A DNA stretch of 64,000 nt, from assembly GCA_965219685.1 (NCBI GenBank), contig CBDCOH010000002.1, positions 2,976,001-3,040,000 on the forward strand, written 5' to 3'. Positions within the stretch are counted from its first letter, which is position 1. Each line of letters starts with the position of its first letter. The position numbers and the translations under genes are program-made. The DNA comes from Candidatus Spongiisociaceae bacterium. Its GTDB lineage: Bacteria > Actinomycetota > Acidimicrobiia > Spongiisociales > Spongiisociaceae. Positions 939 to 57,821 of the stretch are shown in pieces. The notes beneath the pieces are model-generated. The model was given only the letters and a program-made list of their open reading frames with translations, was not told the origin of the DNA and ran no database searches.

Positions 939-1306
939 GGCCTTGGGAGGGCTGTCCGTGTTCGCCTGGGCGCCAATGGGGTTCCTCACAAACCGAGAAC
1001 TCGGGACCCGCGCGTACAGTCCAAGCCATCCTCGGATGACAGCTGTGTTGTGGACCGTGTGTGCCGATGGTTCAGTTTGATCGTGGGCTCGGATGGCTTG
1101 GACTACTCGTCTAGGAGGTGCAGGTCCCGGACGACCCGAAACGCCCATAGAGGGTTCCTGTCCGTCCCCTGATCACTCGGTGGATCTCACCGATGTTCTC
1201 GCCGGATGCTTGCCGTCCCGCCAGACCCGTAGGTATGCTGCTCTAAATTGCGGTAGATACAGTGTCTTTTGGGGGTATTGAGGCAGTTTGGAGAGGCGGG
1301 AAAGCG

Positions 1307-3337
1307 ATGGTCATTACCACCGATGACGTCAAGACCCAAGCGCTGAGTCTGCCGGAAGAACTCGTCCTGATGCTCCTCAACGAGGAGAACGGTTACTTCC
1401 ACCAGGTACCCGGCTGGGACCTCAACTGCGCCGTCGTCGGGGCCGTTCTCGCAGAACTCTCTTTCAGGTCCCGCATCGACACCGATATGGAGTCCCTCTT
1501 CCTCCTGGACCGGACAGAAACCGGCGATCCTGCCCTCGACCCCATCCTCGAGGTGATCGCGGGTGAGCCGGTCCAGCGAAAGGCCCAGTACTGGATCGAG
1601 CGGCTCGCTCCCCGTGCGGAGTCGATCATCGATCTGACCCTGGATCACCTGGTCGACCTGGGAATCCTGCAACACCACGATGGTGGGTTCTGGACGCTGG
1701 CCCACGCGATGGGGCCGGTCGGACTCTTCACCGCCTCCCCGGACGGCAGCGGAACGCAGTTCGTCAAGACACGCATCAGCCAGGCGATCTTCCACAACGA
1801 GATTCCCGACCCAAGAGACGTCGTCATCATCTGTCTCATCAACACGTGCGACGTATTCCGCTTCATGTTCCAACTCGATGAACAAGCTGAGGACCGCATC
1901 GACTTCATCTGCAACATGGATCTCATCGGCCGGTCCATCGCCGCCGCGGTCTCCCACAACCTTGCCGGCCCGCTGCTCCGGCGTTCTGCCCTGGCCAAGA
2001 AGATCCCGGTTGTCCCCCTGCGCAAACTGCTGCTCAATCCACACATCCGCTCCGGCAACATTCCGGCGCTCTTCGCGGACCTTGCCCGACAATACGGCCC
2101 GGTGTTCCAACTCCGCCCCCCGTTCACCGAGCCGATGATCTTCCTTGCCGGGCCGGCAACGAACGAGTGGGTAAACCGGCGTGGGCGCATGTACCTGAGA
2201 GCCAAGGACTACTTCAGTGAGTTCGAGAAGGTGTATGGCGCCAATGGAGTGTTGCCTTCGCTGGATGGCGCCGATCACTTCCGGCTCCGCAAGTCCATGG
2301 CCCCGGCGTACTCCCGCAGGCGGCTGGCCACACAACTGGACCAACTCTACGGACATGTGCGCGACCACATGACGGAGTGGAAGGTGGGAGACGCCTACTT
2401 CGCAACGCCGATGTGCAGGCGGATGGTCAACGCACAGATCTCACCCCTTTTCGTCAGCGTGGACTCGCAGGACCTCATCGACGATCTGATGACGTACAAG
2501 GAACGCGCGCTCAACACCCACATCGTGAGGGTGCTGCCCAAGTTCATGCTGAAGACACCGGGAATGAGGCGCCGCGCGAAAGCTGTCGAAACGTTGCTGG
2601 AACGGGTCCAGAGCGGGCATACACCGGCTCAACGCGCTGACAGTCCGCGGGACCTTGCAGATGACTTCCTGAGCCTGCATGCCAGCGACCCGCAGTTCGT
2701 CCCGGAGTCGAATCTCCGGTTCGCGTTCTCGGCGGCCCTGATCGCCAGCGTGTATCTCGGCGATGCGGTCAACTTCGCCCTGTATGCCATGGTGTCCCAG
2801 CCCGGACTCCAAGCTCGAGTCCAGAAGGAAGCCGATGCGCTGTTCGAGGGCGGCGATCCGCAAGGCCGGGACTTCAACCCGTCCACCATCGACGTCACTC
2901 ACCGCCTCATGATGGAGTCCCTGCGCATATACCCGATCGTCCCGATGTCCATGCGCAACGTCATGAACGCATGCCTGGTCGAGGGGTATGAGTTGCCGGT
3001 GGGGTCACGGATCCTGATCGCCCAGACAGCCTCGCACTACATGGACGACGTCTTCCCGGACCCCTTCAAATTCGACATCGATCGCTACCTGTCTCCCCGC
3101 CTCGAGCACAACAGTCCCGGGTACGCCCCGTACGGACTGGGCACCCACAAATGTCTCGGGTCCCGCTGGATGGAACTGCAGCTGACCGTCAACGTGCTCA
3201 TGGTCGCGCACTACTTCACCCTCGAGATAGCCCCCGCCGACTTCAAGCTCAGGTTCAACCCGTTGCCGTCGATGAAGCCGAGCAAGAAGCTGAAGTTCCG
3301 GATCGTCGAGCAGAGACGCGGGCTACCCGATAGTTGA
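1307..3337 (+). CDS. GPP34 (GOLPH3/Vps74-like) domain fused to cytochrome P450
   Basis: N-terminus LSLPEELVLMLL...GAVLAELSFRSRI...TGDPALD...WIERL...LVDLGIL is the GPP34 pattern. C-terminus has ExxR (ESLR), FDIDRY meander and heme motif PYGLGTHKCLG. ATG at 1307 chosen over the ORF-track start at 1262. Confidence 0.85.
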   Translation: MVITTDDVKTQALSLPEELVLMLLNEENGYFHQVPGWDLNCAVVGAVLAELSFRSRIDTDMESLFLLDRTETGDPALDPILEVIAGEPVQRKAQYWIERLAPRAESIIDLTLDHLVDLGILQHHDGGFWTLAHAMGPVGLFTASPDGSGTQFVKTRISQAIFHNEIPDPRDVVIICLINTCDVFRFMFQLDEQAEDRIDFICNMDLIGRSIAAAVSHNLAGPLLRRSALAKKIPVVPLRKLLLNPHIRSGNIPALFADLARQYGPVFQLRPPFTEPMIFLAGPATNEWVNRRGRMYLRAKDYFSEFEKVYGANGVLPSLDGADHFRLRKSMAPAYSRRRLATQLDQLYGHVRDHMTEWKVGDAYFATPMCRRMVNAQISPLFVSVDSQDLIDDLMTYKERALNTHIVRVLPKFMLKTPGMRRRAKAVETLLERVQSGHTPAQRADSPRDLADDFLSLHASDPQFVPESNLRFAFSAALIASVYLGDAVNFALYAMVSQPGLQARVQKEADALFEGGDPQGRDFNPSTIDVTHRLMMESLRIYPIVPMSMRNVMNACLVEGYELPVGSRILIAQTASHYMDDVFPDPFKFDIDRYLSPRLEHNSPGYAPYGLGTHKCLGSRWMELQLTVNVLMVAHYFTLEIAPADFKLRFNPLPSMKPSKKLKFRIVEQRRGLPDS

Positions 3338-3411
3338 TAGTGGCTAGTTGATAGTTGCCAGCTCCGTTTCTTAACGGTGAAGAGTCAGTGCCAACTAGCA
3401 ACTGACGACTA
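3329..3411. repeat. Heptamer array forming an imperfect inverted repeat between convergent genes (possible terminator)
   Basis: gatagtt gatagtg gctagtt gatagtt gccagct ... ccaactagcaactgacgacta. Confidence 0.55.
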
Positions 3412-5886
3412 AGCGGGTTCCTCGGCTGCGCCGTGGCGTCGATGTACGGCTTCGATCGTGTCGTCGAGCTCGGCTGCCCAGCGGCGCATCCTCGAGCGGA
3501 GCCGCATGTTCTGGTAGGAGCCCCAGACCGTCATGGCGGGCGGCACCAGCACGATGGAGACGATCAGCGAGTACGCGATCGTGATCGCCGCGGTGATGGC
3601 GAACTGCTGGGATGCGGCCAGAGGTGAGAACACCAGCACTCCGAGTCCTAGCGCCGTGGTCAGAGCAGAGCCCAGCAGCGCCGATCCCGTGGTGGAGAGC
3701 GTCCGGATCGCCGCCTTCTCCGGGTTTCGCTCGTATGCGTACTCCTCGCGGTAACGATGGATCATGTGAATGGTGTAGTCGACCCCGATCCCGATCGAGA
3801 GCGCGGTGATTATGGACGTGATGAGCGTGTAGGGAATGTCCAGCAGCGCCATGGTGCCCAGCACCGATATGAGCACGAGCACTATCGGGAACACCGCCAC
3901 AAAGCCCAGCGCCGGCTGACGCACCGTCACCCAGAAGAAGAGGGCGAGAACGGTCAGTGCCACCGCGACGGTGGTGCTGATGGCCTCCGTCTGCTGCTCA
4001 GTGATGGCGTCGGTAACGGTGAACGAGATGATGCTGGACGAAGTCGCGGTGAGGGCGTCGTCGTCGCCGAACCAGAGTTCCTCGATATCCCGCTGGGTGG
4101 TCCTCGCCTGCGATGTGTCGCCTGCGAAAGCCGGGAATTGGAGCAGCATGGCATCGATGCCGCCGGGATTGTTGACCAGGAGACGCCCCAGGAAGGGATC
4201 TTGCGCCTCGAGACGGTCGAGGAAGTCCTGCATCAACCCGGCATCGAGCTCGATCCCGGCGGAGGCTTCCTGGAGTAGGGCGGCAAGCTCCGGGTCGTAC
4301 CGGTCGCCGGGCGCCCCGCTGTCGTTGACCCAGTCGTGTACCACCATGTCAAACGATGCCTGGATCGGCCCCGCTGCCGCGCCGGGGCGGAGCGTCTCAT
4401 CCGCGAAAGCGGTGGTGAGGTCGTGGAGGTCGATGAGCGTGCGGGTGTCGGTGGCTTCGGCCATCACCAGCAGGCTGACCATCTCCGTCGAGCCGCCGAT
4501 AGCCGCATCCAGCGTGTCCATGTCCTCCAGCAGTCCGCCACCTCTCGGAAGGATGTCGCGGATGCTGAACTCCGACTCGAGGTCCCTCGCCGCGAATCCG
4601 AGCGCGATCGTCACCGCTATCACCGCGACGATGTAGGGCGTCGGCCGGCGTGTGACTCCCCTCCCCAGCGACTCCGCCAAGGGTCGGATGCCAGGCAAGG
4701 CAGTCGAGATCGGGCGCGGATCCTTCAACTTGCCCCGAGCCGCCCGCCTCCGATCGATGATCGTCCGGCCGGCCGGAATGAGCGTCAGCATTACCAGCAG
4801 GCTCATCCCGACGCCCAGCCCCGCTATGACGCCGAAGTCGTTGACTATCCCGATCGGCGAGAACAGGCTCACCAGCAGGCTGACGATCGTGGTGACCGCG
4901 GCAAGGGTGAGAGGCAGTGTGACGTGACGCAGTCCCTTGCGGACGGCCCCCACCACCTCCTCGCCCGCCAAGCGCTGCTCGCGGTAGTGCGAGACGATCT
5001 GGATCGCGTAGTCCACCGTGAGACCGATCAGGATGATCGGCACCATCGTGGTGAGGGAGTTCGGAGGGCCGACAAGACCCAACGCGTTCGGTCCGAGCCA
5101 TCCCTCCGCCCCGGTGATCCAGATGATCGACAGTAGGAGTCCTCCGATCGTGAGGAGGAGATCCGAGATCGTGCGCATGAAGAGCAGGATCAGCGCCGCG
5201 ATCAACAGGAAGGCCGCACCCACCAGGGGTGCCATCCCCTCCTCGGTGGCCCTCTTGTACTCGTCCTCGACCACCACGGGCGAGACGCTGGTCACCCGCA
5301 GCGGGCCCTCGTCCGCATCTGCCAACTCGTCGACCCTCCGGGAAGCGTCATAGATTCGCTCGTCCTTGGTGTCCTGCAGGTTGATGGTGGCAATGGCGAC
5401 CCGCGTCCCGTCCGTGTCCATGCCGGTCGTGGCGGCGAGTGCCTCCCCGATGCCCGGAACGTTGCGGACGGAATCGATCTGCTCCTGCGTGACCGACTCG
5501 AAGCTCTCCACCTGCAGCACGGCCTTGACCAGGAACGAGGGCGCGAACACAGGATCGGGCTGCGCCAGTATCTCTCCCACGCCCGGATCAGTAACGATCT
5601 CGTTGACGAGGCTGTCCATCTGCGCGAGACCCCCGGGTGTGAGCGCGTCCCCACGGAAGAGAAGCGTCGCAACGTGAGCCCCTCCGGAATCGCCGAAGAG
5701 TTCCTCTATCTCTGCCAAGGCTTGGGCGACACGGCTCCCCTGGGGAAGGGTCTCGGCAGTCTCCGGCGGCTCGGCGCGCTGTGCCGTCCCGGCGCCCAAG
5801 GCAAAGGTGATGACTAGGAGGACCGCGATGGTGACCCATGGGTAACCCGTCACCATCCGGCGCAGTCGATCGAGCGCCTTACTCAT
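3409..5886 (-). CDS. MMPL/RND-superfamily transporter
   Basis: Two repeats of extracytoplasmic loop plus TM bundle; motifs IGLTVDYAIQ and IGIGVDYTIH; 825 aa. Confidence 0.9.
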   Translation of the reverse strand: MSKALDRLRRMVTGYPWVTIAVLLVITFALGAGTAQRAEPPETAETLPQGSRVAQALAEIEELFGDSGGAHVATLLFRGDALTPGGLAQMDSLVNEIVTDPGVGEILAQPDPVFAPSFLVKAVLQVESFESVTQEQIDSVRNVPGIGEALAATTGMDTDGTRVAIATINLQDTKDERIYDASRRVDELADADEGPLRVTSVSPVVVEDEYKRATEEGMAPLVGAAFLLIAALILLFMRTISDLLLTIGGLLLSIIWITGAEGWLGPNALGLVGPPNSLTTMVPIILIGLTVDYAIQIVSHYREQRLAGEEVVGAVRKGLRHVTLPLTLAAVTTIVSLLVSLFSPIGIVNDFGVIAGLGVGMSLLVMLTLIPAGRTIIDRRRAARGKLKDPRPISTALPGIRPLAESLGRGVTRRPTPYIVAVIAVTIALGFAARDLESEFSIRDILPRGGGLLEDMDTLDAAIGGSTEMVSLLVMAEATDTRTLIDLHDLTTAFADETLRPGAAAGPIQASFDMVVHDWVNDSGAPGDRYDPELAALLQEASAGIELDAGLMQDFLDRLEAQDPFLGRLLVNNPGGIDAMLLQFPAFAGDTSQARTTQRDIEELWFGDDDALTATSSSIISFTVTDAITEQQTEAISTTVAVALTVLALFFWVTVRQPALGFVAVFPIVLVLISVLGTMALLDIPYTLITSIITALSIGIGVDYTIHMIHRYREEYAYERNPEKAAIRTLSTTGSALLGSALTTALGLGVLVFSPLAASQQFAITAAITIAYSLIVSIVLVPPAMTVWGSYQNMRLRSRMRRWAAELDDTIEAVHRRHGAAEEPA

Positions 5887-5988: not shown

Positions 5989-7065
5989 TCATCGTGCAGC
6001 GTCACGAAGCCTAACAGTGACCCGGCTCGGCGACTCATGCTGCTCGGGATAGAACTGGGCGCAGTAGCGTCGATAGCTCATGATCTCGCCGTCGGAAGTG
6101 CAGAGGCGGGGCCGGGGCCGGTACCGCTTGCGGCTCCAGATAACCACATCCTGGCGAACGTCCTGCATCTGGAAGGCCGCCATGATCTTGTTCATGATGG
6201 GGGCGCGCAGCTTGGGGGGCAGGAAACCCAGCCCTGCGATCCACCTCTTCGGTTGGCGGATCTCCCGCACCTGCGAGACGAGGGACAGGTCGATGAGGAT
6301 GCCGTCCACCGGCGTGGCCAGAACCCACAGGCGAAGGTCCATCCCGATCGTGTGCTCGCGGATCTGCACATAGGAGTAGCCGAGCCCGTGTATCAGCGTG
6401 TCGGCGGACACGTCAAGGGTCAGCCTGGCGATCCCGGCGATCTTGCGGGTTCTCCTGAAGTCGAACCGGCTCACGAGCAACGGTCCGTCCACCGACGCTC
6501 GCTCCACGCGCTTCACGTTGCCGTAGCCGTGGACGTAACGCAGGTGGCCAAGATCCACAGAGTTCTCCGTGGTCTCCTGCGGATGGCCGGGGAAGCGTAC
6601 GGTGCTGATATCGAGACCGCTCCACCCGTCCTGGGGCGGCGTGTCGGCGGGCAGGCTCCATTGCGGTTCTCGCCCCCCGTGACCCCACCAGACGAAGATC
6701 AAGTCGAGGACCTCCTGGGTCTCGAAGGTGCGCAACCTCGCCGCCTTGGGCGGTCTGGCGTACGGTGTGGCGACGCACCGGCCACTCACGTCGAACTCGA
6801 AGCCGTGGAAGGGACAGACGAGGCGGCCATCGCATACGCGGCCTCCGGCGGCCGGTCCCATATCGGCGCCCAGGTGCGGGCAGAAGGAGTCCGCCACGCA
6901 GACATTGCCGTTCTCGTCGTACCAGATGACGATGGTCTCTCCCATCCAAGTCCTCTGGATGAGCCCGGCCCTCCGTACATCTTGGCGGCTCGCGACGAAG
7001 TACCAGCCCTCCGGGAAGGGGGACGGCAATCGACCGCTCCCGAGCGCCACAGATCGGCTTGACAT
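5989..7065 (-). CDS. Rieske non-heme iron oxygenase, KshA/Neverland (sterol hydroxylase/desaturase)-like
   Basis: CPHLG...CPFHG Rieske ligands; ENSVDLGHLRYVH iron site; C-terminal QDVVIWSRKRY...DGEIMSYRRYCAQFY typical of the KshA/Neverland group. Confidence 0.85.
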   Translation of the reverse strand: MSSRSVALGSGRLPSPFPEGWYFVASRQDVRRAGLIQRTWMGETIVIWYDENGNVCVADSFCPHLGADMGPAAGGRVCDGRLVCPFHGFEFDVSGRCVATPYARPPKAARLRTFETQEVLDLIFVWWGHGGREPQWSLPADTPPQDGWSGLDISTVRFPGHPQETTENSVDLGHLRYVHGYGNVKRVERASVDGPLLVSRFDFRRTRKIAGIARLTLDVSADTLIHGLGYSYVQIREHTIGMDLRLWVLATPVDGILIDLSLVSQVREIRQPKRWIAGLGFLPPKLRAPIMNKIMAAFQMQDVRQDVVIWSRKRYRPRPRLCTSDGEIMSYRRYCAQFYPEQHESPSRVTVRLRDAAR

Positions 7066-7383
7066 CGATCAAAACCCCCCTCTCCCCACGCCGGGCTGGA
7101 AGTTTCGCGCTTAGACAGAGCACCATCGAATGCGAGACCCGCTGACCAACCGCCTGATTGCGGACTCTTACATACAAGTGCTGTTACAGGCTAGCAATGT
7201 CGGCCCGGAATCCTGTCCATTTACCCGTCGCTACCGTACTTAGTGGAGACTTAACTGTCCTTGGCAGTATGCAGATTCGATGAACTCTGTTGAGAGTATC
7301 TACACGGGATAGGCAGGGTGACTTGCGGAGCCTTTGGGAGCACCGTCGGACGGTCTGGGCGCTGCGGACAAGAAGGTTCAGCC

Positions 7384-8740
7384 TCATACCTTCTTGAAAC
7401 GCCACCCGTACATAAGGCTGCCGTAGTGATTGAACGAACGCCTCGCGCCGGAATCATCGAAGGGATAGTCCGCACCCAACTGCGTCGCTGCCGCGAGCCC
7501 GCTCACGAAGCAGGTCTCCTGGCTGTTGATCAGGGTGTGGGCTCCACAGTGCCAGGTCCGTCTTCTACCCTGGATGAAGCGGAAGAGATAGATCAGCCAG
7601 GCTACGTGGCGCACATCATGCACGATGTGCTGGAACCACCACCGTCCGATGACCCTCCGCTCGTCGATCCGGCTGATGGGGTTGTAGGTCACGAGGCAAG
7701 GCTTGTCGGACCGGTTCGCCCACGGCTGCTGGTTATGCATGATGTAGGTGATCTCGTAGTTGTCCGGCCTGGCGCCGTACTGTTCGATGTGGTTGCTGCG
7801 CGTCTCCAGCGGGTTCACTTCATTGTCAGGTAGGACCGAGGGATCCGAATGCACCACGGTGTGATTGTGGAGTTCGCTCTCGTAACGTATCGACGACAGG
7901 ATGTAGCGCTCCACCATCGTGGGCTTGTCGAGGATCATCAGCGTCTGGTTCGCATTGCACGCGAAGATCACGCCGTCGAACGTCTCCTTCAAACCCGCTT
8001 CGTCCTCGACCACAACACCCGACGGATGGCGGTACACCTTTAGGACCGGACGGTTGAGGTAGATCTTCTCCGCGAAGTCGGCCGACAGGTTCTCGTAGAT
8101 GCGTCGTGTCCCCTGATCCCATGTCTGCATGGAGGTGGCGACTTCGATGTCGAAGAACTCGAGATATCTCGAGAAAAGAGCCGCAGGCATGTCGAAGACG
8201 TTGGTCGCCATCAGGAAGTTGACGAACATCGGCTTCAGTATCTTGTAGCGGAAGTCCCCGGAGAAACCACCTAGGTTCAGGACCGTCCCCATGCTGATGT
8301 AGTTGAACGGGTTGATTGCGTTCAGGAACTTCGACCGTGAACGGCTCAGATACCCAAACCAGTGAAGACGTCTCAGAACTCGTTGAAACCTCGCGATCTC
8401 CGGCTGGAGTTGCTGCCTGATCTCGGAGTCGAAGTCATGAGCGTACACCTGACCACGGTATTTGACGCTATAACTGAATTTGGTATCGATCATTTCGATA
8501 CCAAACTCCTTCATCAGTAACACGACATGGTGATAGACCGACGGGATGCAGGCGGTGACCGAAATGTCGAAGGGGATCGAGCTGCCGTCAGCCTGGGGGC
8601 ATCTCAGCTGTGACGGCATTCCCGCCGATCCGATCCTGGGCCTCGAACAACCGGAAGTCGAATCGGTCGGGGTGGTGGTGCAGACCCCATGCCGCGCCCA
8701 GCCCGGAGATGCCTCCGCCGACGATTGCAATGCGTCGCAG
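7384..8740 (-). pseudogene. FAD-dependent oxidoreductase (COG2907/amine-oxidase-like), one frameshift, apparent CTG start
   Basis: GGGAGG-N7-CTG at 8740 opens (L)RRIAIVGGGISGLGAAWGL...FEAQDRIGGNA (Rossmann fold). One extra base in the G5 run at 8595-8599 shifts to the frame of ORF 7384-8787, which ends IQGRRRTWHCGAH...SGLAAATQLG. Confidence 0.75.
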
Positions 8741-8845
8741 TGTTGTACCTCCCGCACAGGTTGCCACGACCTTATCGTTGAGAACACGCGTTGCTTGGTG
8801 ACCAGGCCAGGATGTACTCGAGGGCCGGCCGGACCCCTCTAAGAC

Positions 8846-8918
8846 GATTGGTTCCTAGATGATTAGTTCCTAGGTAGCAGGTACTAAGTGCTTAGCGTTA
8901 GATCGGGTACGTTTCCGT
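8846..8918 (+). repeat. Dispersed intergenic repeat, copy B
   Basis: gattggttcctagatgattagttcctag...taag...cgttaga...cgtttccg, similar to 868-938. Confidence 0.6.
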
Positions 8919-11832: not shown

Positions 11833-12558
11833 TCAGGCTGTCAGAGAGGCCAAGGAATCGCTCTTTCTGATCAGCGCCACACCCAGCAGGATGACCCATG
11901 CTATCTGGAAGAACACCGCGACGTTGCCCAAGAGGTAAAGGGTGAAGACGCTGTCCTCGAGGAGGGTCGCTAGCAGGAGGAGCAACGATCCAACAATTGC
12001 CGGGGCCACGCCCAGTAGCTGTGCGAGCAGCCTATCCGCGCCAAGTAGGCGCACGTTCATCAGTGACACAGCGAAAAAGGCCACGCCTACCAGGATCAGG
12101 ATTGTGGCAAAGATTCCGAGGGACCCTCCGATTACCATGAACACGACGGCAGTATCAAGTGCATCTCCTGTTAAGGCCTCGGCGGGGGTATATCCGAGGG
12201 TTACAGACATCAAGAAGTTCATTGCGAAGCCCGCGGTCCGGACTGACAGGCCAATTATAAGGAACAACATCCCTAGTTTCCTTAGGTATCCCTCGCTACC
12301 GCTGTCTCCCATCACTTCCTTCAGACCCCAGAATCCCACTAACAGGCCGAAGGAGGCTATGAATCCTACGTCCACCAGCAGAGTGACTAGCGTACTATGC
12401 GGTGCCATTCCAAGAATTGCCTCCTGCATAGCTGCCTGCGGACCGTTAGGGTTTTCTCCCGGGAAGACGCCTGGCCTTAGACTGCTGACCAACGTATCCA
12501 CCAGCGGCCCGATTACCAGGAGCCAACCAGCTATCTTTCCTAGTTTCGCCGATGTCAC
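11833..12558 (-). CDS. Hypothetical multi-pass membrane protein
   Basis: 241 aa, about six hydrophobic segments, AAGGAG RBS; visibly more AT-rich codons than its neighbours. Confidence 0.7.
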   Translation of the reverse strand: MTSAKLGKIAGWLLVIGPLVDTLVSSLRPGVFPGENPNGPQAAMQEAILGMAPHSTLVTLLVDVGFIASFGLLVGFWGLKEVMGDSGSEGYLRKLGMLFLIIGLSVRTAGFAMNFLMSVTLGYTPAEALTGDALDTAVVFMVIGGSLGIFATILILVGVAFFAVSLMNVRLLGADRLLAQLLGVAPAIVGSLLLLLATLLEDSVFTLYLLGNVAVFFQIAWVILLGVALIRKSDSLASLTA

Positions 12559-12752
12559 AACGATCTCCTTTGTACTGTCCTAACTGGCGAGAATACGGAG
12601 ATCCACCCGCTGTGGAACCTGTAGACCCCTCACTTCAGATCACTGTAGCAAGATCCTTCGGATCCGGCGCGGCATAGGTTCTCACTCAGAGCCTGTTGGC
12701 TTGCTCTTGGTCTTCGACCCCACACTTGGCGATGTCCTCGGCGCTGCTGCAA

Positions 12753-14159
12753 CTATGAGGCTGTCCGGGTAACTGCAGACGCGAATCGGCCTGCTCCCGA
12801 CCCGGCAATGCGACCGAAGACCGCCCCGATCGTGAGACCAAAACCGGCGAGGTAGCCAGCGGTGAGCACGTTTCCCGACATGATCTCCCCAGCGGCGAAG
12901 AGGTTGTCGACCCGGCCTCGGTCTGTCTGCAGATGGGCGTCGGCATCGACTTTGACGCCGAGATAGGTGAAGGTGATCCCGCATCGCAGGGGGTAGGCGT
13001 AGAAGGGCGGGGAGTCGATCCGCAGCGCCCAGTTGGACTTCGGTATGTCGAGGCCGGTCGTGCTCCGCCCGTCGAGGCGGCCGTGATCGAAGGGGGGGTC
13101 GGCCGGAACCGACGAGTTGAACTGGCGGATCGTCCGCTCTAGTGCATCCAGGGGCAGTCCCGCCTGCTGCGCCAGACCGTCGAGCGTCTCCGCTTGGTAC
13201 GGCGGGTAGAGGCCCGGTATGAACAAATGGTTGACCTGCGAATCGAATACCGAGAAGGCGATCTGATCCTGCTGCGCCGCGATCAGGTGACCCCAACTGG
13301 CGTATCTCCTCGGCCAGAGGTCCTCTCCCTCGTCCGCGAAACGCTGAGCAGCCTTGTTCACCATGATGGACAACGGCACCGAGTCGATCCGCGTAACGAT
13401 GCCCCCGTCGAAGTCCGGGGCGCGGGCGTCGACGCTGATTGCGTGCGCCCCCTTCGGATCGCCGACCGACAGCGCACCGCGTCCAAGAAGTGCCTTGAGC
13501 GGACCCCCAATGTTGAAGGGCGACCCGCGGATCACGAACCGGTCCGCCGCCTCACCCCAGTTCTCGCGGAGCCACGCCTTGTTGGCCTCGAACCCGCCCG
13601 ACGCGACCACGACGGAGCGGGCCGCTAGCTCGGTCGGTTCCCCATCCACGAGGGCGACAACTCCCGAGGCGCGATGCCCCTCCAACAGGATGTCTGTCAC
13701 CGGAGTCTCGTAACGCACGCCGATCTTGTGCCTGGCGGCCGACGCGTACAAAGCGTTGAGCATCGCCTTGCCGCCTCCCAGGAAGAACCTGTTGGTCCTT
13801 GACAGGTGAAGCGTGCCCTTCAGGGAAGCCTGCCAGTGGACACCGTGCTGCGCCATGAAGCCGGGAACCGACTCGGACGCCCTGATCACCATCCGGGCGA
13901 TGTCCTCATCGATGTCCTCGTCGCTCACCTTGACGAGGTCCGCCCAGAGCTCCTCTTCCGTATAGGTGCCGGTCAGAATCCCGTCACCGCCCGCGTGGAT
14001 GTGGCGGATGTTGCGCGTGTGGCGCGTGTTCCCACCACGCATGTCGATGGGCGCCGACTCCAGGACGAGGACCCGGTCGACGAAGCGGCTCGCTGTCAAG
14101 GCGGCACAGAGCCCCGCGTTGCCGCCGCCCACGACGATCACATCGGCTGCTGCCTTCAT
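12753..14159 (-). CDS. tcuA: FAD-dependent tricarballylate dehydrogenase
   Basis: VIVVGGGNAGLCAA, RGGNTRHTRN, LHLSRTNRFFLGGGKA, GGIVTRIDS, FAAGEIMSGNVL..GYLAGFG. Confidence 0.9.
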   Translation of the reverse strand: MKAAADVIVVGGGNAGLCAALTASRFVDRVLVLESAPIDMRGGNTRHTRNIRHIHAGGDGILTGTYTEEELWADLVKVSDEDIDEDIARMVIRASESVPGFMAQHGVHWQASLKGTLHLSRTNRFFLGGGKAMLNALYASAARHKIGVRYETPVTDILLEGHRASGVVALVDGEPTELAARSVVVASGGFEANKAWLRENWGEAADRFVIRGSPFNIGGPLKALLGRGALSVGDPKGAHAISVDARAPDFDGGIVTRIDSVPLSIMVNKAAQRFADEGEDLWPRRYASWGHLIAAQQDQIAFSVFDSQVNHLFIPGLYPPYQAETLDGLAQQAGLPLDALERTIRQFNSSVPADPPFDHGRLDGRSTTGLDIPKSNWALRIDSPPFYAYPLRCGITFTYLGVKVDADAHLQTDRGRVDNLFAAGEIMSGNVLTAGYLAGFGLTIGAVFGRIAGSGAGRFASAVTRTAS

Positions 14160-14269
14160 GGGAACCCGTCACCCGCCGTCATCGAACCCCCCGAGGCTCG
14201 CCGACTCGACGCTCTAGCGATACCCGATCCCGGCCTGTTGGCCCAGTACATGGCAGTATTATATGGTTC

Positions 14270-15424
14270 GTGAACCCGCCGAGCATGCGTGTGCCGACTG
14301 CAAGTGTCGCGGTCGCGGCCGACCCTCCCCGGATCCTGGGTGTAGGCCTACTCAACGAGGCGCAGCGTCAGTTCGACATCTGCAACGCCTGCCGCTACTG
14401 CGAGGGACTGTGCGCGGTCTTCCCTGCCCTCGAGCGGCGCTCCATCTTCACCGAGGGCGACGTCCTCTACCTCGCCAACCTGTGCCACGACTGCCGCAGC
14501 TGCTTTGACGTCTGCCCCTACGCCACCCCGCACCAGTTCGCGGTGGACATTCCCCCGTTGATGAGCCGTATCCGGGAGAAGACCTACCAGAGCTACGCAC
14601 GGCCCAAGGCTCTCGGGCATCTCCTCCTGGGACCCGCCCGCGGACGAGCCTGGCTTGCGGCGCTCGCGGTTGCGGTGACCATCGCGCTCGGATTGCTCAT
14701 CCTGGGATGGGACCGGCTCGTGGCCCCGCCCGCCGACGAGGCGGCGTTCTACGAATTGATCCCGTTCATGGTGATGACCATTCCGGCGTCCGTCCTCTCG
14801 GGCCTCGCCGTGCTGTTCCTCGGCGCCGGCTTGCTTGCCTTCTGGAGGGACACCACCGACCGGCGAGCCGATCTGGGATCGATGCGGGAAGCCATGCAGG
14901 CCGCCTTCAGCCTCAAGAACATGCACGGGGGAGGACCGGGGTGTACATATCCGAAGGAGGCACCCGCCAAGAGCCGCCTGGTCATGCACTCCCTGGTGTT
15001 CAACGGTTTCCTCGCCACGTTCCTAGCTACGATCCTCGCCGCCGTCTGGCAGGAACTGCTCGGGAGGCTGCCCCCCTATCCCCTGTTGAGCGCACCCGTG
15101 ATCGTCGGAACGATCGGCGGGATCGCAACCATCGCAGGATGCATCGGGCTACTCGTGCTGAGGGCCGGTAGCCGGACGGAACTCGAGACGTCCGGGGCTC
15201 GGCTCCTGGATCTCGACTTCATCACCCTCCTCCTCCTGATCAACGGGTCAGGACTGGCACTGCTGGCTTTGCGGTCGACGACGGCCATGGGACTGCTCCT
15301 GCTGGTCCACCTGGCCCTGGTAGCAGCCTTCTTCGTGAGCCTCCCGTACGGCAAGTTCGTCCACGCGACCTACCGGACCAGCGCGCTCATCCAGGACTCC
15401 CTGGAGAAGAGGACCGGCGCCTGA
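14270..15424 (+). CDS. tcuB: Tricarballylate utilization 4Fe-4S membrane protein
   Basis: ICNACRYCEGLCAVFPA, YLANLCHDCRSC...CPYA.PH.F, LPYGKFVH. Confidence 0.9.
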   Translation: MNPPSMRVPTASVAVAADPPRILGVGLLNEAQRQFDICNACRYCEGLCAVFPALERRSIFTEGDVLYLANLCHDCRSCFDVCPYATPHQFAVDIPPLMSRIREKTYQSYARPKALGHLLLGPARGRAWLAALAVAVTIALGLLILGWDRLVAPPADEAAFYELIPFMVMTIPASVLSGLAVLFLGAGLLAFWRDTTDRRADLGSMREAMQAAFSLKNMHGGGPGCTYPKEAPAKSRLVMHSLVFNGFLATFLATILAAVWQELLGRLPPYPLLSAPVIVGTIGGIATIAGCIGLLVLRAGSRTELETSGARLLDLDFITLLLLINGSGLALLALRSTTAMGLLLLVHLALVAAFFVSLPYGKFVHATYRTSALIQDSLEKRTGA

Positions 15425-41560: not shown

Positions 41561-42086
41561 CCATCGGACTCAGATGCTTCTATGTTCCAGTGGTCGCGAC
41601 TGGGGATTTTCAGTGATCGCCGTCACCGCATCACAGGCCTCGCCCCGTGTCCGCCCCGAGAGTGCTGCGTAACACAGCGGAGGAGGTGTCCGTAGCCGGA
41701 ACCCGCGAAAGCCCAGCTAGGCCCTGTGCTGACCACCGACAGAGTAGGTGAAGTCCCACTCCTAATATCACCTTGCGGGTGTGCGCACTCCGCTGCTGGC
41801 CTCCGGGAGCCTGGAGACCGCGCCCGGAGCGGAACGTTGGGGTGTTCAGGAGTTCAAGAGTCGAGGGTAGCCGCGTATCTTCACCGGCGAAGAGTCAGAG
41901 GAGAAGTCGTAGCGATCTTCTGAGGGACTGACGTTGGACGCCGGTCCGGTGAGCCTCGACTCGAGTTCCGTTGGGTTGCGATGGTCCATGACTCCTGGCA
42001 TTCCGGCTTCTCCTGAACGGGTTTCATCGACACGGGGTTGGGAGTTGGGCTACTGTGGCGGACGTGTTGCCGGTCAGGGAAGGCTG

Positions 42087-44390
42087 ATGGACCGCAGTCG
42101 TGTAGCGCTAATGGGTCTGCTGGTTGCCGTGTCTCTGGGTTGGGTGAGTGGCGTCGCAGCGTCGCCGGGGGAAGGGTTTTCTGACAGTGCTGGGAGTGTC
42201 CACCGTCCCGGGATCGACGCCTTGGGCGATCTGGATGTGTTCGAGGGCACGGAGTGTGGCGAAGGATTGTTCTGTCCCCAGGATTCGATCCATCGCTGGG
42301 TGATAGCCGTGTGGCTGGTGCGGGTACTGGACGAGGTACCTGTCGTAGCGTCGGGCGGTTCCCGGTTCGCTGATGTGGATCCGGAACGGTGGTGGGCGCC
42401 ATATGTAGAGCGGCTTGCCGAACTCGGTGTCACCCAGGGCTGCGCAACTGAACCTCTTCGCTTCTGCCCGGACCAGGCAGTAACCAGGGCACAGATGGCA
42501 ACCTTTCTAGTCGGAGCGTTCGGACTGGAAGAGGCCCACGCAGCGGGGTTTGCGGACACATCGGGCAATATCCACGAGTCGAGCATCGACGCCTTGGCAG
42601 CAGCGGGGATCACAGCCGGCTGCGCTACCGGTCCGCCCCGGTTCTGCCCCAACCAGCCCGTCACGCGAGGCCAGATGGCTACTTTCCTCGCTCGGGCCAC
42701 CGGGCTCGTCGAGGTGCCCGACCCGGCTGCTGAACCGTCGGGGAAGTTTGCAGCGGTTGCTTCGGGTTACCACCACACGTGTGGGCTTCGTGTAGAGGGA
42801 ACCATCGCATGTTGGGGTACGAACTGGTTCGAGGATGTGGTGTCACCCGAAGGCTTGTACACCGCGGTTACGGTCGGTCGCAATCACTCGTGTGGACTGG
42901 GTGTCGACCATACGGTGACCTGTTGGACCGGCTACCGGTCGAGTAGCGGCGTACCTGATGGGGAGTTCACCACCATTTCGACCTCTGCCGGAGGCTTCCA
43001 TTCGTGCGGCCTGCGCAAAGACCAGACGGTTGCATGTTGGGGTTCTAACGGTGAGGGACAGACAGACTCACCTGAGGGGCAGTTCATGGCGGTCACCGCC
43101 GGTGAGAGGCACTCGTGCGCGCTACGCACGGACGGGACCGCCACATGCTGGGGCTGGGACAAGGCCGGGGCTACCAACCCACCGGGGGGTGTGTTCACTT
43201 CGATCTCGTCGGGTGGGAGCATCGACGGTGGTCACACCTGCGCGCTGAAGCCCGACCAAACCGCGGTCTGTTGGGGTAACAACTCGAAGGGGCACGGGTT
43301 CGTCTCCGGGCAAACAGATGCACCCAGAGGCAAGTTCATCAGCGTCACGGCGGGCTACGACCACACATGCGGGATCCGCCCCGACCGCTCCCTGACCTGC
43401 TGGGGCAACAACCCCTACGGTGGCACCGACGCCCCCGCCGGAGAGTTCACAGCGGTGTCGCCCGGGTTCTGGTACACATGCGGGTTGCGAACCGACGAGA
43501 CCATCACCTGCTGGGGACATGACCATCTGAGGGCGACCGCTCCCCCGGACACCGACGAACAGTTCACCGCTGTCGAAGTCAGTTCGGGATGGAACGGCGA
43601 CCACGCCTGTGCCCTAAAGACCGATCAGACGATCGTCTGCTGGGGCGCCGACACGGTCCGGAGGGAGAACCCACCCGCAGGGAAGTTCACCTCCCTCAGC
43701 AGCGGCCAACTACATACATGCGGAATCCGTACCGATGGCACCGTCACCTGCTGGGGTGGCTGGGGTCGCGTTACGACATGCATCATCTATTCCGATCGAA
43801 GCGACTGCCGGACCTATTGGGAACACGAACCACCGAAGGAACAATTCAGCGCTGTCAGCAGCGGCTACTCGTACTCGTGCGGCCTCCGCACCGATGGGAC
43901 CGTCGCCTGCTGGGGAACAACCGGGCGCGGGTCTCCCACATCCGACATACCCGCCGAGACCTTTCCCATCTCCAGCGGACATGGACACTCCTGCGGGATT
44001 CGAGCCGACCAGACCGTCACCTGCTGGGGCACCATCGACGAGAAGGCACCCGAAGCACCCGACGGCAAGTTCGCCTCGATCTCTAGCGGTTGGCGATACT
44101 CGTGCGGGGTCCGCACCGACCAAACCGTCACCTGCTGGGGCAACCATCGACAAACCGAAAGACTCGACGGAGCCTTCACCGCGGTGGCCGCCGCGGGAGA
44201 ATACCCATGCGGGATCCGTACCGACGGAACCGTCACGTGCGACCACTGGCGCTTCAATGCGCCCGAAGGGACCTACACAGCAATCTCGGGCGGCTACGCC
44301 CAATTCTGCGGCATCCGTATCGACGGAACCATCAACTGCTGGGGCCGGGTCCCGGTACCGCCCCCCGACGGTGTCAACTGGATTACCTAA
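42087..44390 (+). CDS. SLH-domain and RCC1-like repeat surface protein
   Basis: Signal peptide; three SLH motifs (FCPDQAVTRAQMATFL); many F..VS.G..HSCG.RTD.TV.CWG repeats. ATG at 42087 preferred. Confidence 0.85.
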   Translation: MDRSRVALMGLLVAVSLGWVSGVAASPGEGFSDSAGSVHRPGIDALGDLDVFEGTECGEGLFCPQDSIHRWVIAVWLVRVLDEVPVVASGGSRFADVDPERWWAPYVERLAELGVTQGCATEPLRFCPDQAVTRAQMATFLVGAFGLEEAHAAGFADTSGNIHESSIDALAAAGITAGCATGPPRFCPNQPVTRGQMATFLARATGLVEVPDPAAEPSGKFAAVASGYHHTCGLRVEGTIACWGTNWFEDVVSPEGLYTAVTVGRNHSCGLGVDHTVTCWTGYRSSSGVPDGEFTTISTSAGGFHSCGLRKDQTVACWGSNGEGQTDSPEGQFMAVTAGERHSCALRTDGTATCWGWDKAGATNPPGGVFTSISSGGSIDGGHTCALKPDQTAVCWGNNSKGHGFVSGQTDAPRGKFISVTAGYDHTCGIRPDRSLTCWGNNPYGGTDAPAGEFTAVSPGFWYTCGLRTDETITCWGHDHLRATAPPDTDEQFTAVEVSSGWNGDHACALKTDQTIVCWGADTVRRENPPAGKFTSLSSGQLHTCGIRTDGTVTCWGGWGRVTTCIIYSDRSDCRTYWEHEPPKEQFSAVSSGYSYSCGLRTDGTVACWGTTGRGSPTSDIPAETFPISSGHGHSCGIRADQTVTCWGTIDEKAPEAPDGKFASISSGWRYSCGVRTDQTVTCWGNHRQTERLDGAFTAVAAAGEYPCGIRTDGTVTCDHWRFNAPEGTYTAISGGYAQFCGIRIDGTINCWGRVPVPPPDGVNWIT

Positions 44391-44682: not shown

Positions 44683-45915
44683 CTATGTTTTGCAAATCGG
44701 TTTTGTGGTCGGGTCGGTGAGCCATTTCTGGTATCGGGTGGCGAGCTGGTGGTTGTGGTGGAGGCCTCGTTCGAGGAGCGAGAGGAGGGTGGGGTGGACC
44801 TGGAGGTGTTCGGCGGCGTCGGTGAGGGTTAGTCGGGTTTGGTGACGTTGGAGGCGGAGGTCGTTGCCGTCGGGTGTTGCGGACGGTTTGGTTAGTAGGT
44901 GGTAGATCTCGCGTGCGATGTGCCGTTTCAGGCAGCGGATGATCTCGCGGCGAGTTTTGCCTTCGGCTTTGCGTCTGCGGGTGTATTCGATGGTGCGGGG
45001 GTCGGTGCGCATCCGGTTGGTGGCGATTCGCCAGAGAGCGTTGTTGGCTTGGCGGTCGCCGCCTCGGTTGAGCCGATGCCGAACTATCTGTCCCGATGAT
45101 GCTTGGACGGGGCTGAGGGCGCATAGTGCCGCGAAGGACCGTTCCGATTTCATGCGTTGGGGGTTGTCGCCGGCGGCGACTAGGAGTGCTGCAGCGCTGT
45201 GGGGGCCCACTCCGGAGGCGGCTAGGAGCGCCGGGTTGGCCTTGGCGCAGAGACGGCGGATCTCGGTGTCGAGTTCGGCTATTTCTGTGTCGAGGGTCCG
45301 GTATCGGCGGGCCAGGTGCCGCAGCGCCTTTTTCGCGTACGCGGTGGTGGTCTGCGCTTCGCCGGGACGCCAGCGGACACAGATTCTGACCATCGCTTGG
45401 ATACTGGAGCCCCGGAGCCGATGTTTGACCTGCTCAGGGGCGGTTGTGAGGAGGGCGTGGATCTGGTTGGCGGCCTGGATGCGTGCTTTGACCGCTGAAC
45501 GGCGAGCCATCCGAAGCATTCTTATCCCTTCTACGGGTCCGTCCCCGCCTTTGGGTCGCCCGGTGGCATCTCCGCTGAGGGCAGCTCGGGCTGCGGCCTC
45601 GGCGTCGACGGTGTCGGTCTTGCCCCTGAGACGACGCAGCTGGCGGTTGGGACGCATGACCTCCACCACCTCGATGTCGGCTCGGGTCAGATAACGAGCC
45701 AGGCCGGCGCCGTAACTACCGCATCCTTCCACACCGACCTGAACCGGCTGCCCCCAGGAGCGAAGCCACTCCTCCAGCTGCGCGTATCCCGCCGCATCAG
45801 CCCTGAACTGCGCCGACCCCAGTAGGCGACCCGTGTGATCCAGCACCGCTCCAACGTGGACATCCCGATGGGTATCAACCCCTCCATACACATCGACCTG
45901 GTCTTGTTCCGGCAT
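44683..45915 (-). CDS. IS110 DEDD recombinase/transposase with C-terminal HTH extension
   Basis: GGVDTHRD, GVEGCGSYG, KTDTVDA, SPVQASSG...HRLNRGGDRQAN; Xre-like HTH tail; ATG at 45915 after GGGGAGG. Confidence 0.92.
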   Translation of the reverse strand: MPEQDQVDVYGGVDTHRDVHVGAVLDHTGRLLGSAQFRADAAGYAQLEEWLRSWGQPVQVGVEGCGSYGAGLARYLTRADIEVVEVMRPNRQLRRLRGKTDTVDAEAAARAALSGDATGRPKGGDGPVEGIRMLRMARRSAVKARIQAANQIHALLTTAPEQVKHRLRGSSIQAMVRICVRWRPGEAQTTTAYAKKALRHLARRYRTLDTEIAELDTEIRRLCAKANPALLAASGVGPHSAAALLVAAGDNPQRMKSERSFAALCALSPVQASSGQIVRHRLNRGGDRQANNALWRIATNRMRTDPRTIEYTRRRKAEGKTRREIIRCLKRHIAREIYHLLTKPSATPDGNDLRLQRHQTRLTLTDAAEHLQVHPTLLSLLERGLHHNHQLATRYQKWLTDPTTKPICKT

Positions 45916-45959
45916 GCGCTCTGCCTCCCCTCTCCTTGTGTCGGAATAGGCTTGTGCGG

Positions 45960-46150
45960 CAGCGCCGGTCCGAAGCGGGTGGACAAAACACTCAGGGTGT
46001 GGGGAAGAAACGACCAAAGCTCCTATGAGGTCACATCCGCTCCGGGCTGGCTGCCCGTACCCCCCGACCGGTGCCCGGCCGACAGATCCGGGGTAAGGCA
46101 CCACAGCCAGTTTCCCGGTGGGTCAGACCAGGCCCCGGTCGAGGTCCCCT
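45960..46150 (-). ncRNA. Putative IS110 bridge RNA (target-binding loop then donor-binding loop)
   Basis: Non-coding end upstream of the recombinase carries segments matching the donor junction (cataggagc, tgagtg) and the target (gggaaac, ccccggat). Boundaries approximate. Confidence 0.7.
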
Positions 46151-46201
46151 TAAGTATGAGTGTTTCTCCGGAGACTCGATTAGTTGGGAGATAATGGAGT
46201 T

Positions 46202-47443
<1,242 letters not shown>

Positions 47444-47559
47444 ACCACTCTCCGGCAAACCCGGGGCGGTTCAGTGGGAGGGATGGTTAGGGGCGTTCGG
47501 GGCGTGTGTGGCTGGGGTTTGGGTGGTTGGTTCCGTTTGCGGGGGCCTGTTGGGTGGGT

Positions 47560-48891
47560 TCAGCAGCGCTGGGGCAGCGTCCGGAGGTTAGCGAGGGTGG
47601 TCTGGTAGGTGTGCGCCCAGGGCCATCGGGCGGGTAGTCGCAGTATGGGGCGTCCGCTGTGGTTGACCACCCGTGCGGGAATCCCGAAGATGCGGGTGCG
47701 GATGGTGCGTCCACGGATCAGCCGCCCGGCCGGCTGTGTTCGTCCCAAGATGGCTATCCAGCGGTAGAGGTTATGCGCTAGAGCGGCGCAGAGAAGCCAG
47801 GCCTGGTTAGCGGCGAACCGTCCCGATGGTAGATGAGCGAGACCCCCGGAGTCTTTGAGGTCGCGGATGGCGAGTTCGCAGACCGCATGGTGTCGGTGGT
47901 GGCGGTCCGCTTGTGGGGCAGGCGCATGCGAGTTGGTCACGAACGCGTGGTAACGCCAGTCGGGCCAGAACTCTTGCTGGGCGCCGGTGAGGCGGGTGCG
48001 GCGCACCACGAGGCGTACTCGGCGTTTCTGCTTACGTTTGCGGGGGTTGGTCATCTCAAGTGTGGTTTCCCCAACTTGTGCCCGGCCGCCTTCGGGATAG
48101 TCGATATCTGCCCAGTCGTCTTCGTCGATAGCCGCTATAGCGGCTAGGACATGGCGGAGTTGTGGGCAGGTGATCGACCAGCCCACCCCGAGGTGGTCCA
48201 AGGTTGCCAACATGGCATAGGACCAGAAGCCCGAATCGGCCCGAACCTCGATCCGTCCCCGAGCCCCGGCCCGTCGCGCGCACCGGATCGTCTCCTGCGC
48301 GAAATGGGCCACACCCCGCCGCGATGCTCCGGCCCTTAGCCGGGCACCCACCGCCTCTCCTGTATCGGCCCGGAACGCCAACAGCGGGTGATAACCCAAC
48401 TCTTTGGTGTACCCATAGGAGGCGCCCTCCTTGCCCCTGCCAGACACTCCACAGATCGTCGAGTCCAAATCCAAGGTCAGCGGTCTCTTCCCCGGGCCGG
48501 CACCCGCTGCCCACGCACGACCCAGCGCCACGCCCAAAACCTTGTTCAACTGGCGGGTGTGGCCCCAGGTAAACGACCGCAGGAAAGTGCCCACCGTCGA
48601 AGGTGCCATCACCTCATGGGACAGCACCCGATGCGTCGACCCCGCCCGCAGCCGATCCACATGATCGATGTGAGAGCCCCCCACCAGCATCGCGGACACC
48701 AACGTCAAGGTCTTACGACCCGGCCGCGCGCCACCCACCCGACCGCCCAAACGGACCACGTCGTCCACCAACTCTTCCAACCCCAGACGGCTCATCAACG
48801 TCGACGCCGCCAACAGACCCCCATCGGCCACCAACCCCTCATCGTCGAAAACCACCTCATACCGGTCAACATTGTGCGATACTCCACTCAC
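47560..48891 (-). CDS. IS1380-family transposase
   Basis: PSTVGTFLRSF, LDLDSTI, GYHPL, VRADSGF, ELAIRDLK, PSGRFAANQAW; end-like ggtggatccagg at ~49000-49011. Confidence 0.9.
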   Translation of the reverse strand: MSGVSHNVDRYEVVFDDEGLVADGGLLAASTLMSRLGLEELVDDVVRLGGRVGGARPGRKTLTLVSAMLVGGSHIDHVDRLRAGSTHRVLSHEVMAPSTVGTFLRSFTWGHTRQLNKVLGVALGRAWAAGAGPGKRPLTLDLDSTICGVSGRGKEGASYGYTKELGYHPLLAFRADTGEAVGARLRAGASRRGVAHFAQETIRCARRAGARGRIEVRADSGFWSYAMLATLDHLGVGWSITCPQLRHVLAAIAAIDEDDWADIDYPEGGRAQVGETTLEMTNPRKRKQKRRVRLVVRRTRLTGAQQEFWPDWRYHAFVTNSHAPAPQADRHHRHHAVCELAIRDLKDSGGLAHLPSGRFAANQAWLLCAALAHNLYRWIAILGRTQPAGRLIRGRTIRTRIFGIPARVVNHSGRPILRLPARWPWAHTYQTTLANLRTLPQRC

Positions 48892-49279
48892 AGGAAGTGC
48901 CTCCCGATTCTGGACCTAAACCACTTTCGCTAACGGTTATTGTCCCAGATCAGAGGTACTTTCCACGTCTATACCACCCCCCAACCCAAACACCCACCCG
49001 GTGGATCCAGGCTAAGCCGGTGTCGACCCATCTGCTGGGTCGTCACCGTCGGCAGATTCCCGACCGGCTGTGTTGGGGGATGCTGATACGGTTGGTGACG
49101 GGCTGTCTCCCGTGGTGCTCCTCCACGGCGTTGAACAGGTCGCTGCGGGCCTTGTCGCCCTCTGTGAGCGGGTGGGCGATGATCGTATCCCGGCCGTTCG
49201 TCAGTGATTTGGCGTACCTCTCGGTTGTGTACTGCAGGTTCTGGCCGCCGAACTTCGTGCGGAGCGCTTCCTTGAGGCC

Positions 49280-51730: not shown

Positions 51731-52320
<590 letters not shown>

Positions 52321-57814: not shown

Positions 57815-57821
57815 CTGTTCG

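Follow-up and report, generated by a model that had tools for sequence, protein, structure and literature searches.

The closest described counterpart of the gene analysed here is GPP34_L, a long form of the GPP34 protein family from sponge symbionts. According to the main text of Ferreira et al. (2025, Microbiome 13:4; PMC11706023), 656 of 663 long forms join GPP34 to a cytochrome P450 (cytP450), GPP34_L is found solely in sponge symbionts, spans many phyla and is expressed, and GPP34 as a whole is restricted to sponge (and coral) symbionts. The same text reports fusions of GPP34 to a Rieske domain or an ABC ATPase and proposes that GPP34 proteins are secreted effectors, which bind host phosphatidylinositol 4-phosphate (PI4P) and thereby block phagosome maturation. 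Here we describe a gene of this type in a 64,000-nucleotide stretch from a Candidatus Spongiisociaceae bacterium of the class Acidimicrobiia (hereafter the window; all positions refer to it). The gene, at 1307..3337 on the forward strand, encodes 676 amino acids plus stop. Its product shares with GPP34_L the domain order (GPP34 N-terminal to cytP450), the size (about 675 aa; range about 650-690 aa) and the spread across phyla, and is a member of that group as defined in the main text of Ferreira et al.

The fusion architecture is already published, and its recognition in the window adds none that is new. What appear to be new are the horizontally spread island in which the gene lies, the loss of PI4P-binding residues from an acidic GPP34 domain, and a P450 that lacks the usual acid-alcohol pair of the I-helix. 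The main text of Ferreira et al. does not contain the word 'sterol', and its sections examined here hold no analysis of GPP34_L flanks or of PI4P residues; literature searches on PF05719, on GPP34 in sponges and on sponge sterol, P450 and Rieske topics returned nothing that links the fusion to sterol genes. The reading that we tentatively favour is that the fusion would be a cytoplasmic enzyme tailoring a sterol-like lipid within a transport-linked island, in which GPP34 would serve for docking or substrate handling by some means other than the PI4P pocket.

Bacterial P450s joined covalently to a second domain are also known from the redox-partner fusions, such as P450 BM3 and other P450-reductase proteins, and one of the solved P450s closest to the fusion (E 1e-18) is the CYP51-ferredoxin of Methylococcus capsulatus (6mcw). 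In contrast to these, the partner of the window P450 is N-terminal and carries no redox cofactor motif. An earlier annotation made from the letters alone (the sequence-only reading) had likewise set the fusion apart from P450s fused to redox partners.

The fusion gene and its relatives

The fusion lies in a single open reading frame (ORF) on the forward strand, which runs from GTG 1262 to the stop at 3335-3337. We place its start at ATG 1307 because this position is the initial methionine in 40/40 relatives checked and is preceded, 10 nt upstream, by a Shine-Dalgarno-like GGAGAGG (1290..1296, forward strand); the sequence-only reading had chosen the same start. Pfam recognises GPP34 (PF05719; E 1.3e-28, 100.9 bits against a cut-off of 29.1, profile positions 1-198 of 201) and p450 (PF00067; E 4.8e-34, 118.4 bits against 22.8), both far above their cut-offs, at residues 30-230 and 261-678 as counted from GTG 1262. 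On the forward strand the GPP34 domain occupies 1349..1951, a linker 1952..2041 and the P450 domain 2042..3295, with no stop codon in the frame between the two domains, so the claim of a GPP34 domain running uninterrupted into a complete P450 is borne out. The linker (residues about 216-245) is basic, contains prolines, of which P222 and P234 are invariant in the family, and is modelled with low confidence: the predicted local distance difference test score (pLDDT) falls below 50 at residues 219-228 of the full-length model and at 221-240 of a model of residues 1-240. The full-length AF2 model is itself mediocre (pLDDT 68.1; predicted template-modelling score, pTM, 0.56), and the mutual arrangement of the two domains is therefore not readable from it.

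The fusion is a real gene and not an assembly artefact, since its relatives carry both domains and an exact short-read contig from sequencing run X2 (1789-2212) bridges the junction between them. Selection on each of the two domains is purifying, at a ratio of nonsynonymous to synonymous substitution (dN/dS) of 0.06-0.20, and the protein matches proteins from NCBI records of metagenome-assembled genomes at 96% identity. Nor is the architecture unique to this assembly, the outcome that the sequence-only reading had named as counting against it: 2171 clusters of relatives were matched, and 120/120 of those listed carry both domains at 650-682 aa and 73-96% identity. Among species-representative genomes we found 208 fusion relatives, their records being mostly bins of metagenome-assembled genomes. 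The architecture persists where the P450 domain is only 26-59% identical: of the long proteins scanned among such distant relatives, 42/47 also combine GPP34 and P450, and a second fusion subfamily is equally abundant. Also among these distant relatives, P0191, P0265 and P0270 comprise one form with two GPP34 domains and a P450 (872 aa) and P450s of 711 and 739 aa to which two cyclic-nucleotide-binding domains are joined. Roughly half of the sponge-symbiont GPP34 proteins counted in the main text of PMC11706023 are fused, a published architecture of which the sequence-only reading took no account.

Within the class the fusion was found in 0/150 evenly sampled genomes at E <= 1e-80. Sponge-metagenome runs contained small shares of the sequence words only; the coral-metagenome run X5 contained 0.29 of them, in pieces 99-100% identical. 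Together with the record title of the relative L010, which contains Plut_88890, this run suggests that the island described below occurs in coral-associated communities as well as in sponges. Read cover was thin over parts of the stretch in runs X5 and X7, and no conclusion was drawn from it.

The GPP34 and P450 domains

The GPP34 domain is predicted to have the GOLPH3/Vps74 fold. A model of residues 1-240 (AF2; pLDDT 78.1, pTM 0.79) was compared with solved structures using Foldseek, and 8/8 matches at E <= 0.001 were to GOLPH3 or Vps74 (template-modelling, TM, score 0.56-0.64, probability 1.00) and to nothing else, in agreement with the domain assignment of the sequence-only reading. A family profile built from 27 members likewise found GOLPH3 (3kn1, E 7.3e-6) in the PDB. 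With the GOLPH3 and Vps74 structures (3kn1, 9qpq, 2zih, 4tu3) the modelled domain shares the overall fold and a beta-hairpin, predicted at residues 121-131. It differs from them in being only 16-21% identical, in lacking the eukaryotic N-terminal extension and in being joined to an enzyme. The larger differences lie in its acidity and at the pocket, where all four binding residues are replaced and ten residues are missing.

In GOLPH3 the PI4P pocket is lined by W81, R90, R171 and R174 (W88, R97, K178 and R181 in Vps74), for which double-alanine variants were made (Wood et al. 2009, main text, PMC2806290). A sequence-profile alignment, made without superposed coordinates, places V34, V44, E105 and I108 of the fusion at these positions. 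The replacements are conserved across 35 aligned members: the first column is V in 35/35, the second V, I, T or A, the third E in 33/35 and D in 2/35, and the fourth I in 35/35. The same alignment shows a 10-residue deletion just before the R171 column, and in the models GOLPH3 helices alpha5 and alpha6, with the loop between them, become one continuous helix (93-117). By these alignments, the PI4P residues have been lost in this GPP34 family. Of 42 other fusion clusters, aligned with MAFFT at low identity, 22 have R or K at the R174 column, and none has either at the R90 or R171 column.

The same genome encodes a second, stand-alone GPP34 protein (G000:C2:2891633-2892223; L092:9634-10224), which keeps one of the four pocket residues, the R181 equivalent only. 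Its gene adjoins SDR and DUF5131 genes, and 0/14 larger ORFs scanned in the surrounding 19 kb match p450, unlike the flanks described for GPP34_S in the main text of PMC11706023.

The fusion GPP34 domain is also strongly acidic, with a median net charge of -19 (range -27 to -12) and a pI of 4.5 over 35 sequences; these are whole-domain figures and not a surface distribution. The P450 domain is basic (+7, pI 9.0). At the N-terminus there is no hydrophobic or twin-arginine segment and no Sec/Tat-like signal or anchor, and the most hydrophobic 19-mer starts at residue 172, within the folded core. GPP34 occupies the position where microsomal-type P450s carry a membrane anchor; in the stand-alone P450 relatives no N-terminal anchor is visible either. 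Given the replaced pocket residues, the acidic domain and the lack of an N-terminal signal, the alignments and models speak against the binding of PI4P or anionic lipids, and also against export of the protein.

By sequence, the second domain has the attributes of a P450: a profile match, the cysteine motif GLGTHxCLG with the haem thiolate ligand Cys616 (codon 3152..3154, forward strand), the ExxR pair E537/R540 and the PERF-type arginine R593, of which C616, E537, R540 and R593 are invariant in 35/35 members. Its I-helix is non-canonical. When aligned to CYP120, 7wzl and taxadiene hydroxylase, the domain has V482-Y483 in place of the ET/DT of the (A/G)Gx(D/E)T motif, with a one-residue deletion, so that the segment A480-S-V-Y-L-G-D486 (2744..2764, forward strand) lacks the acid-alcohol pair. 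Both replacement residues are conserved in the family (Y483 in 35/35, V482 in 32/35). The pair is likewise missing in 8 of the 42 fusion clusters and 2 of the 12 stand-alone relatives compared, which form the clade of the window protein; a DT, ET or HT pair is kept in most of the other 34 fusion clusters and in 10/12 stand-alone relatives. P450s without an I-helix acid-alcohol pair are known in P450eryF, CYP74 and CYP8A/CYP5A. These lack the threonine and the acid as the fusion does, with no sequence relationship to it found, and the threonine-less, tyrosine-bearing P450 of this clade might perform non-standard chemistry.

The nearest solved P450s are terpenoid and sterol oxidases, namely taxadiene hydroxylase, CYP120 and CYP51 (E 5e-21 to 1e-18). 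The domain shows no close similarity to the CYP51 sterol 14-demethylases: solved CYP51s match at only E about 1e-18, no CYP51 model was among the NCBIfam matches and the I-helix differs.

The island around the fusion

Three genes on the reverse strand follow the fusion in the window. The first (3409..5886), convergent with it, encodes an RND transporter (825 aa) that is classed as HAE3/MMPL and includes a region resembling a sterol-sensing domain (SSD). Pfam assigns it MMPL (E 8.6e-48), Sterol-sensing (E 7.8e-18) and the Patched SSD, and NCBIfam assigns it HAE3 and, more weakly, HpnN/BstA. The second (5989..7065) encodes a 358-aa Rieske non-haem-iron oxygenase of the KshA type (Pfam Rieske E 1.4e-18; KshA_C E 6e-24 over 207/207 positions). 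By its profile matches and by the CxH...CxxH and DxxHxxxxH motifs readable in the translation it belongs to the Rieske plus KshA_C domain type; it is the sole KshA_C match above cut-off in the whole genome, and its nearest solved structures are 3-ketosteroid 9alpha-hydroxylases (E 5e-25 to 2e-22). The third (7381..8749) is a gene with the amine-oxidase fold that binds flavin adenine dinucleotide (FAD). Its product resembles LkcE (E 4e-27) and the Propionibacterium fatty-acid isomerase 2b9w (E 9e-15), the nearest solved proteins. The gene is frameshifted: in tblastn alignments its N-terminus with the GxGxxG FAD-binding motif (about 8591-8749) is out of frame with the other 420 codons (7381-8646). 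Short-read contigs from runs X1 and X2 over 8545-8900 show no difference, and the frameshift is therefore probably no assembly error.

These neighbours, and the sterol C-methyltransferases (SMTs) described below, belong to the same families as KshA, the C-4 demethylase SdmA, the BstA/HpnN RND proteins and the SMTs of sponge symbionts (Brown et al. 2023, PMC10070321). They differ in that no NCBIfam equivalog cut-off is reached by the neighbours (SdmA 35.6 bits against 600, BstA 33.2 against 1400, HpnN 61.7 against 1100).

We asked how widely these genes accompany the fusion in a census of the best 80 of the 208 relatives, covering this subfamily only, of which 79 loci were kept, with flanks of up to 10 kb per side, some shortened by contig ends. 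The loci come from at least 10 phylum-level groups, and their fusion copies are 64-96% identical. Searched by tblastn with the window genes, they contain the KshA-like Rieske gene in 60/79, the SSD-type RND gene in 41/79 and the FAD gene, intact, in 31/79, at 55-96% identity. A second census, in which greedily called ORFs were clustered without the window genes as guide, added an SMT cluster with a Sterol_MT_C match in 28/79, and 71/79 loci hold at least one of the Rieske, SSD-RND, SMT and FAD genes. Adjacency was counted in the 76 loci where the ORF picker kept the anchor gene: a transporter of the RND superfamily is present in 66/76 and adjacent to the fusion in 40/76, and the FAD gene and the SMT are adjacent in 20/76 and 14/76, respectively. 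Further neighbours are AcrB/MFP/OMF sets, a second SSD-RND type with a LolA-like gene, MpaB-like oxygenases and LppX_LprAFG lipoproteins; in Latescibacterota, Gammaproteobacteria and Opitutae the RND set is of the AcrB-MFP-OMF efflux type. No secretion system was found among the conserved neighbours.

Four loci (L035, L015, L048, L079) contribute two ORFs each to the anchor cluster. In L035 an OMF-MFP-AcrB set lies between the copies; in the other three the ORFs adjoin each other, which could reflect a duplication or a split gene. In L039, L040, L041 and L045 (about 11845-13070; Gammaproteobacteria and Gemmatimonadetes) a Spondin_N plus Big_1 protein, with its eukaryote-like domain, lies directly downstream of the fusion. 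Two window genes were considered as members of the island and set aside. The DUF1761 gene (443-877) recurs in just 1/79 loci, and an FAD_binding_2 gene at 12753-14159, at first a candidate KstD-like steroid dehydrogenase, scores as TcuA (599.8 bits against 369) and adjoins TcuB; this tricarballylate utilisation pair (TcuA on the reverse and TcuB on the forward strand, 12753-15424) is unrelated to the island.

A different sterol-related gene cluster, ERG24-CYP51-LSS, has been described (Kelly et al. 2022, main text, PMC9531527). The island is not that cluster, since cyclase, CYP51 and ERG24 are all missing from the fusion loci.

The fusion and its neighbours are inherited together. Among 30 relatives, the 3 that carry the fusion have the RND orthologue in 3/3 and the Rieske gene in 2/3, and the 27 without the fusion yield one RND match (61% identity) and one Rieske match (only 43%). 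In a tree of 71 copies, the window copy groups with Acidimicrobiia (SH-aLRT 98) and phyla are mostly clustered, with 13 label changes against a minimum of 9, on very short inter-phylum branches; synonymous divergence (dS) between the window copy and those of other phyla is only 0.86-1.24. Taken together, the patchy presence, co-inheritance, short branches, low dS and low dN/dS point to an accessory island that would have moved between phyla in fairly recent times and been maintained by selection. In-frame stops occur in two relatives, one TAA in the RND gene of G153 (C95:417-2867) and one TAG in the Rieske gene of G163 (C4:52628-53665).

Elsewhere, the window encodes two large proteins with SLH domains. 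A 7552-aa ORF on the reverse strand (17780-40438), with fibronectin type III, at least 19 Calx-beta and Ig/cadherin-like domains and SLH near its C-terminus, is probably a cell-surface adhesin of eukaryote-like type, and an 818-aa protein on the forward strand (41934-44390) combines eight RCC1 repeats with an SLH domain, as a eukaryote-like surface protein. The region 44683-63744 is rich in transposases (IS110, rve/IS3, DDE_Tnp_1, ISL3). Within it a C-5 cytosine methylase gene (56002-57372) adjoins one (57822-59834) for a HATPase_c_3 protein whose C-terminus is weakly Shedu-like, and this pair may be a defence locus.

Candidate functions of the fusion

These data allow us to propose a role for the fusion. 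The C-terminal P450 would oxidise or rearrange a sterol-like lipid, alongside the KshA-type Rieske oxygenase, the FAD isomerase/oxidase-like enzyme and, in many genomes, an SMT; the adjacent RND transporter would carry substrate or product across the membrane; and the N-terminal GPP34 domain would help in docking or in handling the substrate, independently of the PI4P pocket known from eukaryotes. Any sterol substrate would have to come from outside the cell, presumably from the animal host, since the window genome (96.7% complete, in 2 contigs) contains no SQHop_cyclase_C match and no Sterol_MT_C match. Sponge-symbiont SMTs methylate sterols in vitro, according to the main text of Brown et al. 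(2023, PMC10070321), the text and readable supplements of which make no mention of P450, Rieske, GPP34 or Golgi. The GPP34 fusions to Rieske domains and ABC ATPases reported in the main text of PMC11706023 count towards a cytoplasmic protein, because these partners are cytoplasmic and membrane-peripheral. Taking the parts of this proposal singly, we judge that the case for a sterol-like substrate is about evenly balanced and that for a docking role of GPP34 somewhat weaker.

Several observations weigh against this proposal. The substrate class of the P450 is not fixed by homology, because its characterised relatives are distant (E about 1e-21 to 1e-18), and the function of every family member is read from sequence comparison. 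An SMT lies near the fusion in only about a third of the loci, and none was found in the window genome. Neither a ferredoxin nor a reductase is among the genes conserved near the fusion. The census is a limited sample. The island may also be decaying in this lineage, given that the FAD gene is frameshifted here and that stops occur in the G153 RND and G163 Rieske genes, or else the sequences of these relatives may contain errors. Finally, general efflux of lipophilic compounds would also fit, because the transporter type varies by lineage (HAE3/SSD, AcrB with MFP and OMF, SSD-RND2 with LolA-like).

This last point leads to the strongest alternative, that the P450 and the Rieske oxygenase would oxidise lipophilic, non-sterol natural products of the host or its neighbours, the RND transporter expelling them and GPP34 being accessory. 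The frequency of RND transporters, the efflux sets of three groups, a P450 without close characterised relatives and the accessory, patchy occurrence of the island all agree with such detoxification. We nevertheless consider it unlikely, as the recurrent SMT gene, a Rieske protein closest to steroid hydroxylases and the HAE3/MMPL transporters with a sterol-sensing-like domain in the monoderm-type loci fit it less well.

Less likely still, the acidic GPP34 domain could tether the P450 to the neighbouring transporter or to a partner oxygenase and so channel substrate, by analogy with Vps74/GOLPH3, which bind the basic cytosolic tails of membrane enzymes. The opposite charges of the two domains, the adjacency of a transporter in many loci and the alternative fusion of GPP34 to P450, Rieske or ABC ATPase in the main text of PMC11706023 are what such an adaptor might produce, but the transporter family varies by lineage while GPP34 stays 61-95% identical.

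The model that goes back to the sequence-only reading is that GPP34 may direct a soluble P450 to lipids of the bacterial membrane, either anionic ones or phosphatidylinositol. The fold of the PI4P effectors GOLPH3 and Vps74, the predicted beta-hairpin, the location of GPP34 at the membrane-anchor position and the basic residue at the R174 column in 22/42 other fusion clusters speak for this model. The replaced tetrad, the deleted loop before R171, the single helix at 93-117 and the strongly acidic domain make it very unlikely, and many of the host phyla are not known to make phosphatidylinositol. The sequence-only reading is therefore partly supported: its link to lipids and membranes agrees with the lipid-type RND transporters, the KshA-like oxygenase, the SMT and the position of GPP34, whereas targeting to anionic or phosphatidylinositol lipids finds no support.

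The effector proposal of Ferreira et al., with the P450 part as accessory, is the only published functional idea and agrees with the restriction to sponge (and coral) symbionts reported in the main text of PMC11706023, with the 0/150 class genomes and with the homology to a eukaryotic PI4P effector, but it is barely credible for this protein, which has lost the pocket (0/4 tetrad residues in the fusion, 1/4 in the stand-alone GPP34), carries an acidic GPP34 domain, begins with neither a Sec- nor a Tat-like segment, would be unlikely export cargo as a haem enzyme needing electron donors, and is encoded among metabolic and transport genes, the conserved neighbours including no secretion system.

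The tailoring of a sterol-like lipid by a cytoplasmic fusion remains our preferred reading, and the conserved association of the gene with genes for steroid-type oxygenases, SMTs and lipid transporters offers a concrete, cheap and testable alternative to the effector idea. A bolder extension, which we regard as doubtful, is that sponge and coral symbionts of many phyla, this Acidimicrobiia genome without a cyclase among them, share a recently exchanged island of GPP34-P450, KshA-like Rieske, FAD isomerase-like, SMT and RND genes that would import, remodel and re-export host sterols and so feed the pool of unconventional sponge sterols that serve as biomarkers, with a P450 of non-standard chemistry and with GPP34 as an ancient bacterial docking module for lipid enzymes, without a phosphoinositide pocket. 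The finding bears on which organisms synthesise or alter the unusual sponge sterols, the subject of the debate over the 24-isopropylcholestane biomarker, and on the role that the GOLPH3 fold may have had before eukaryotes came to use it at the Golgi.

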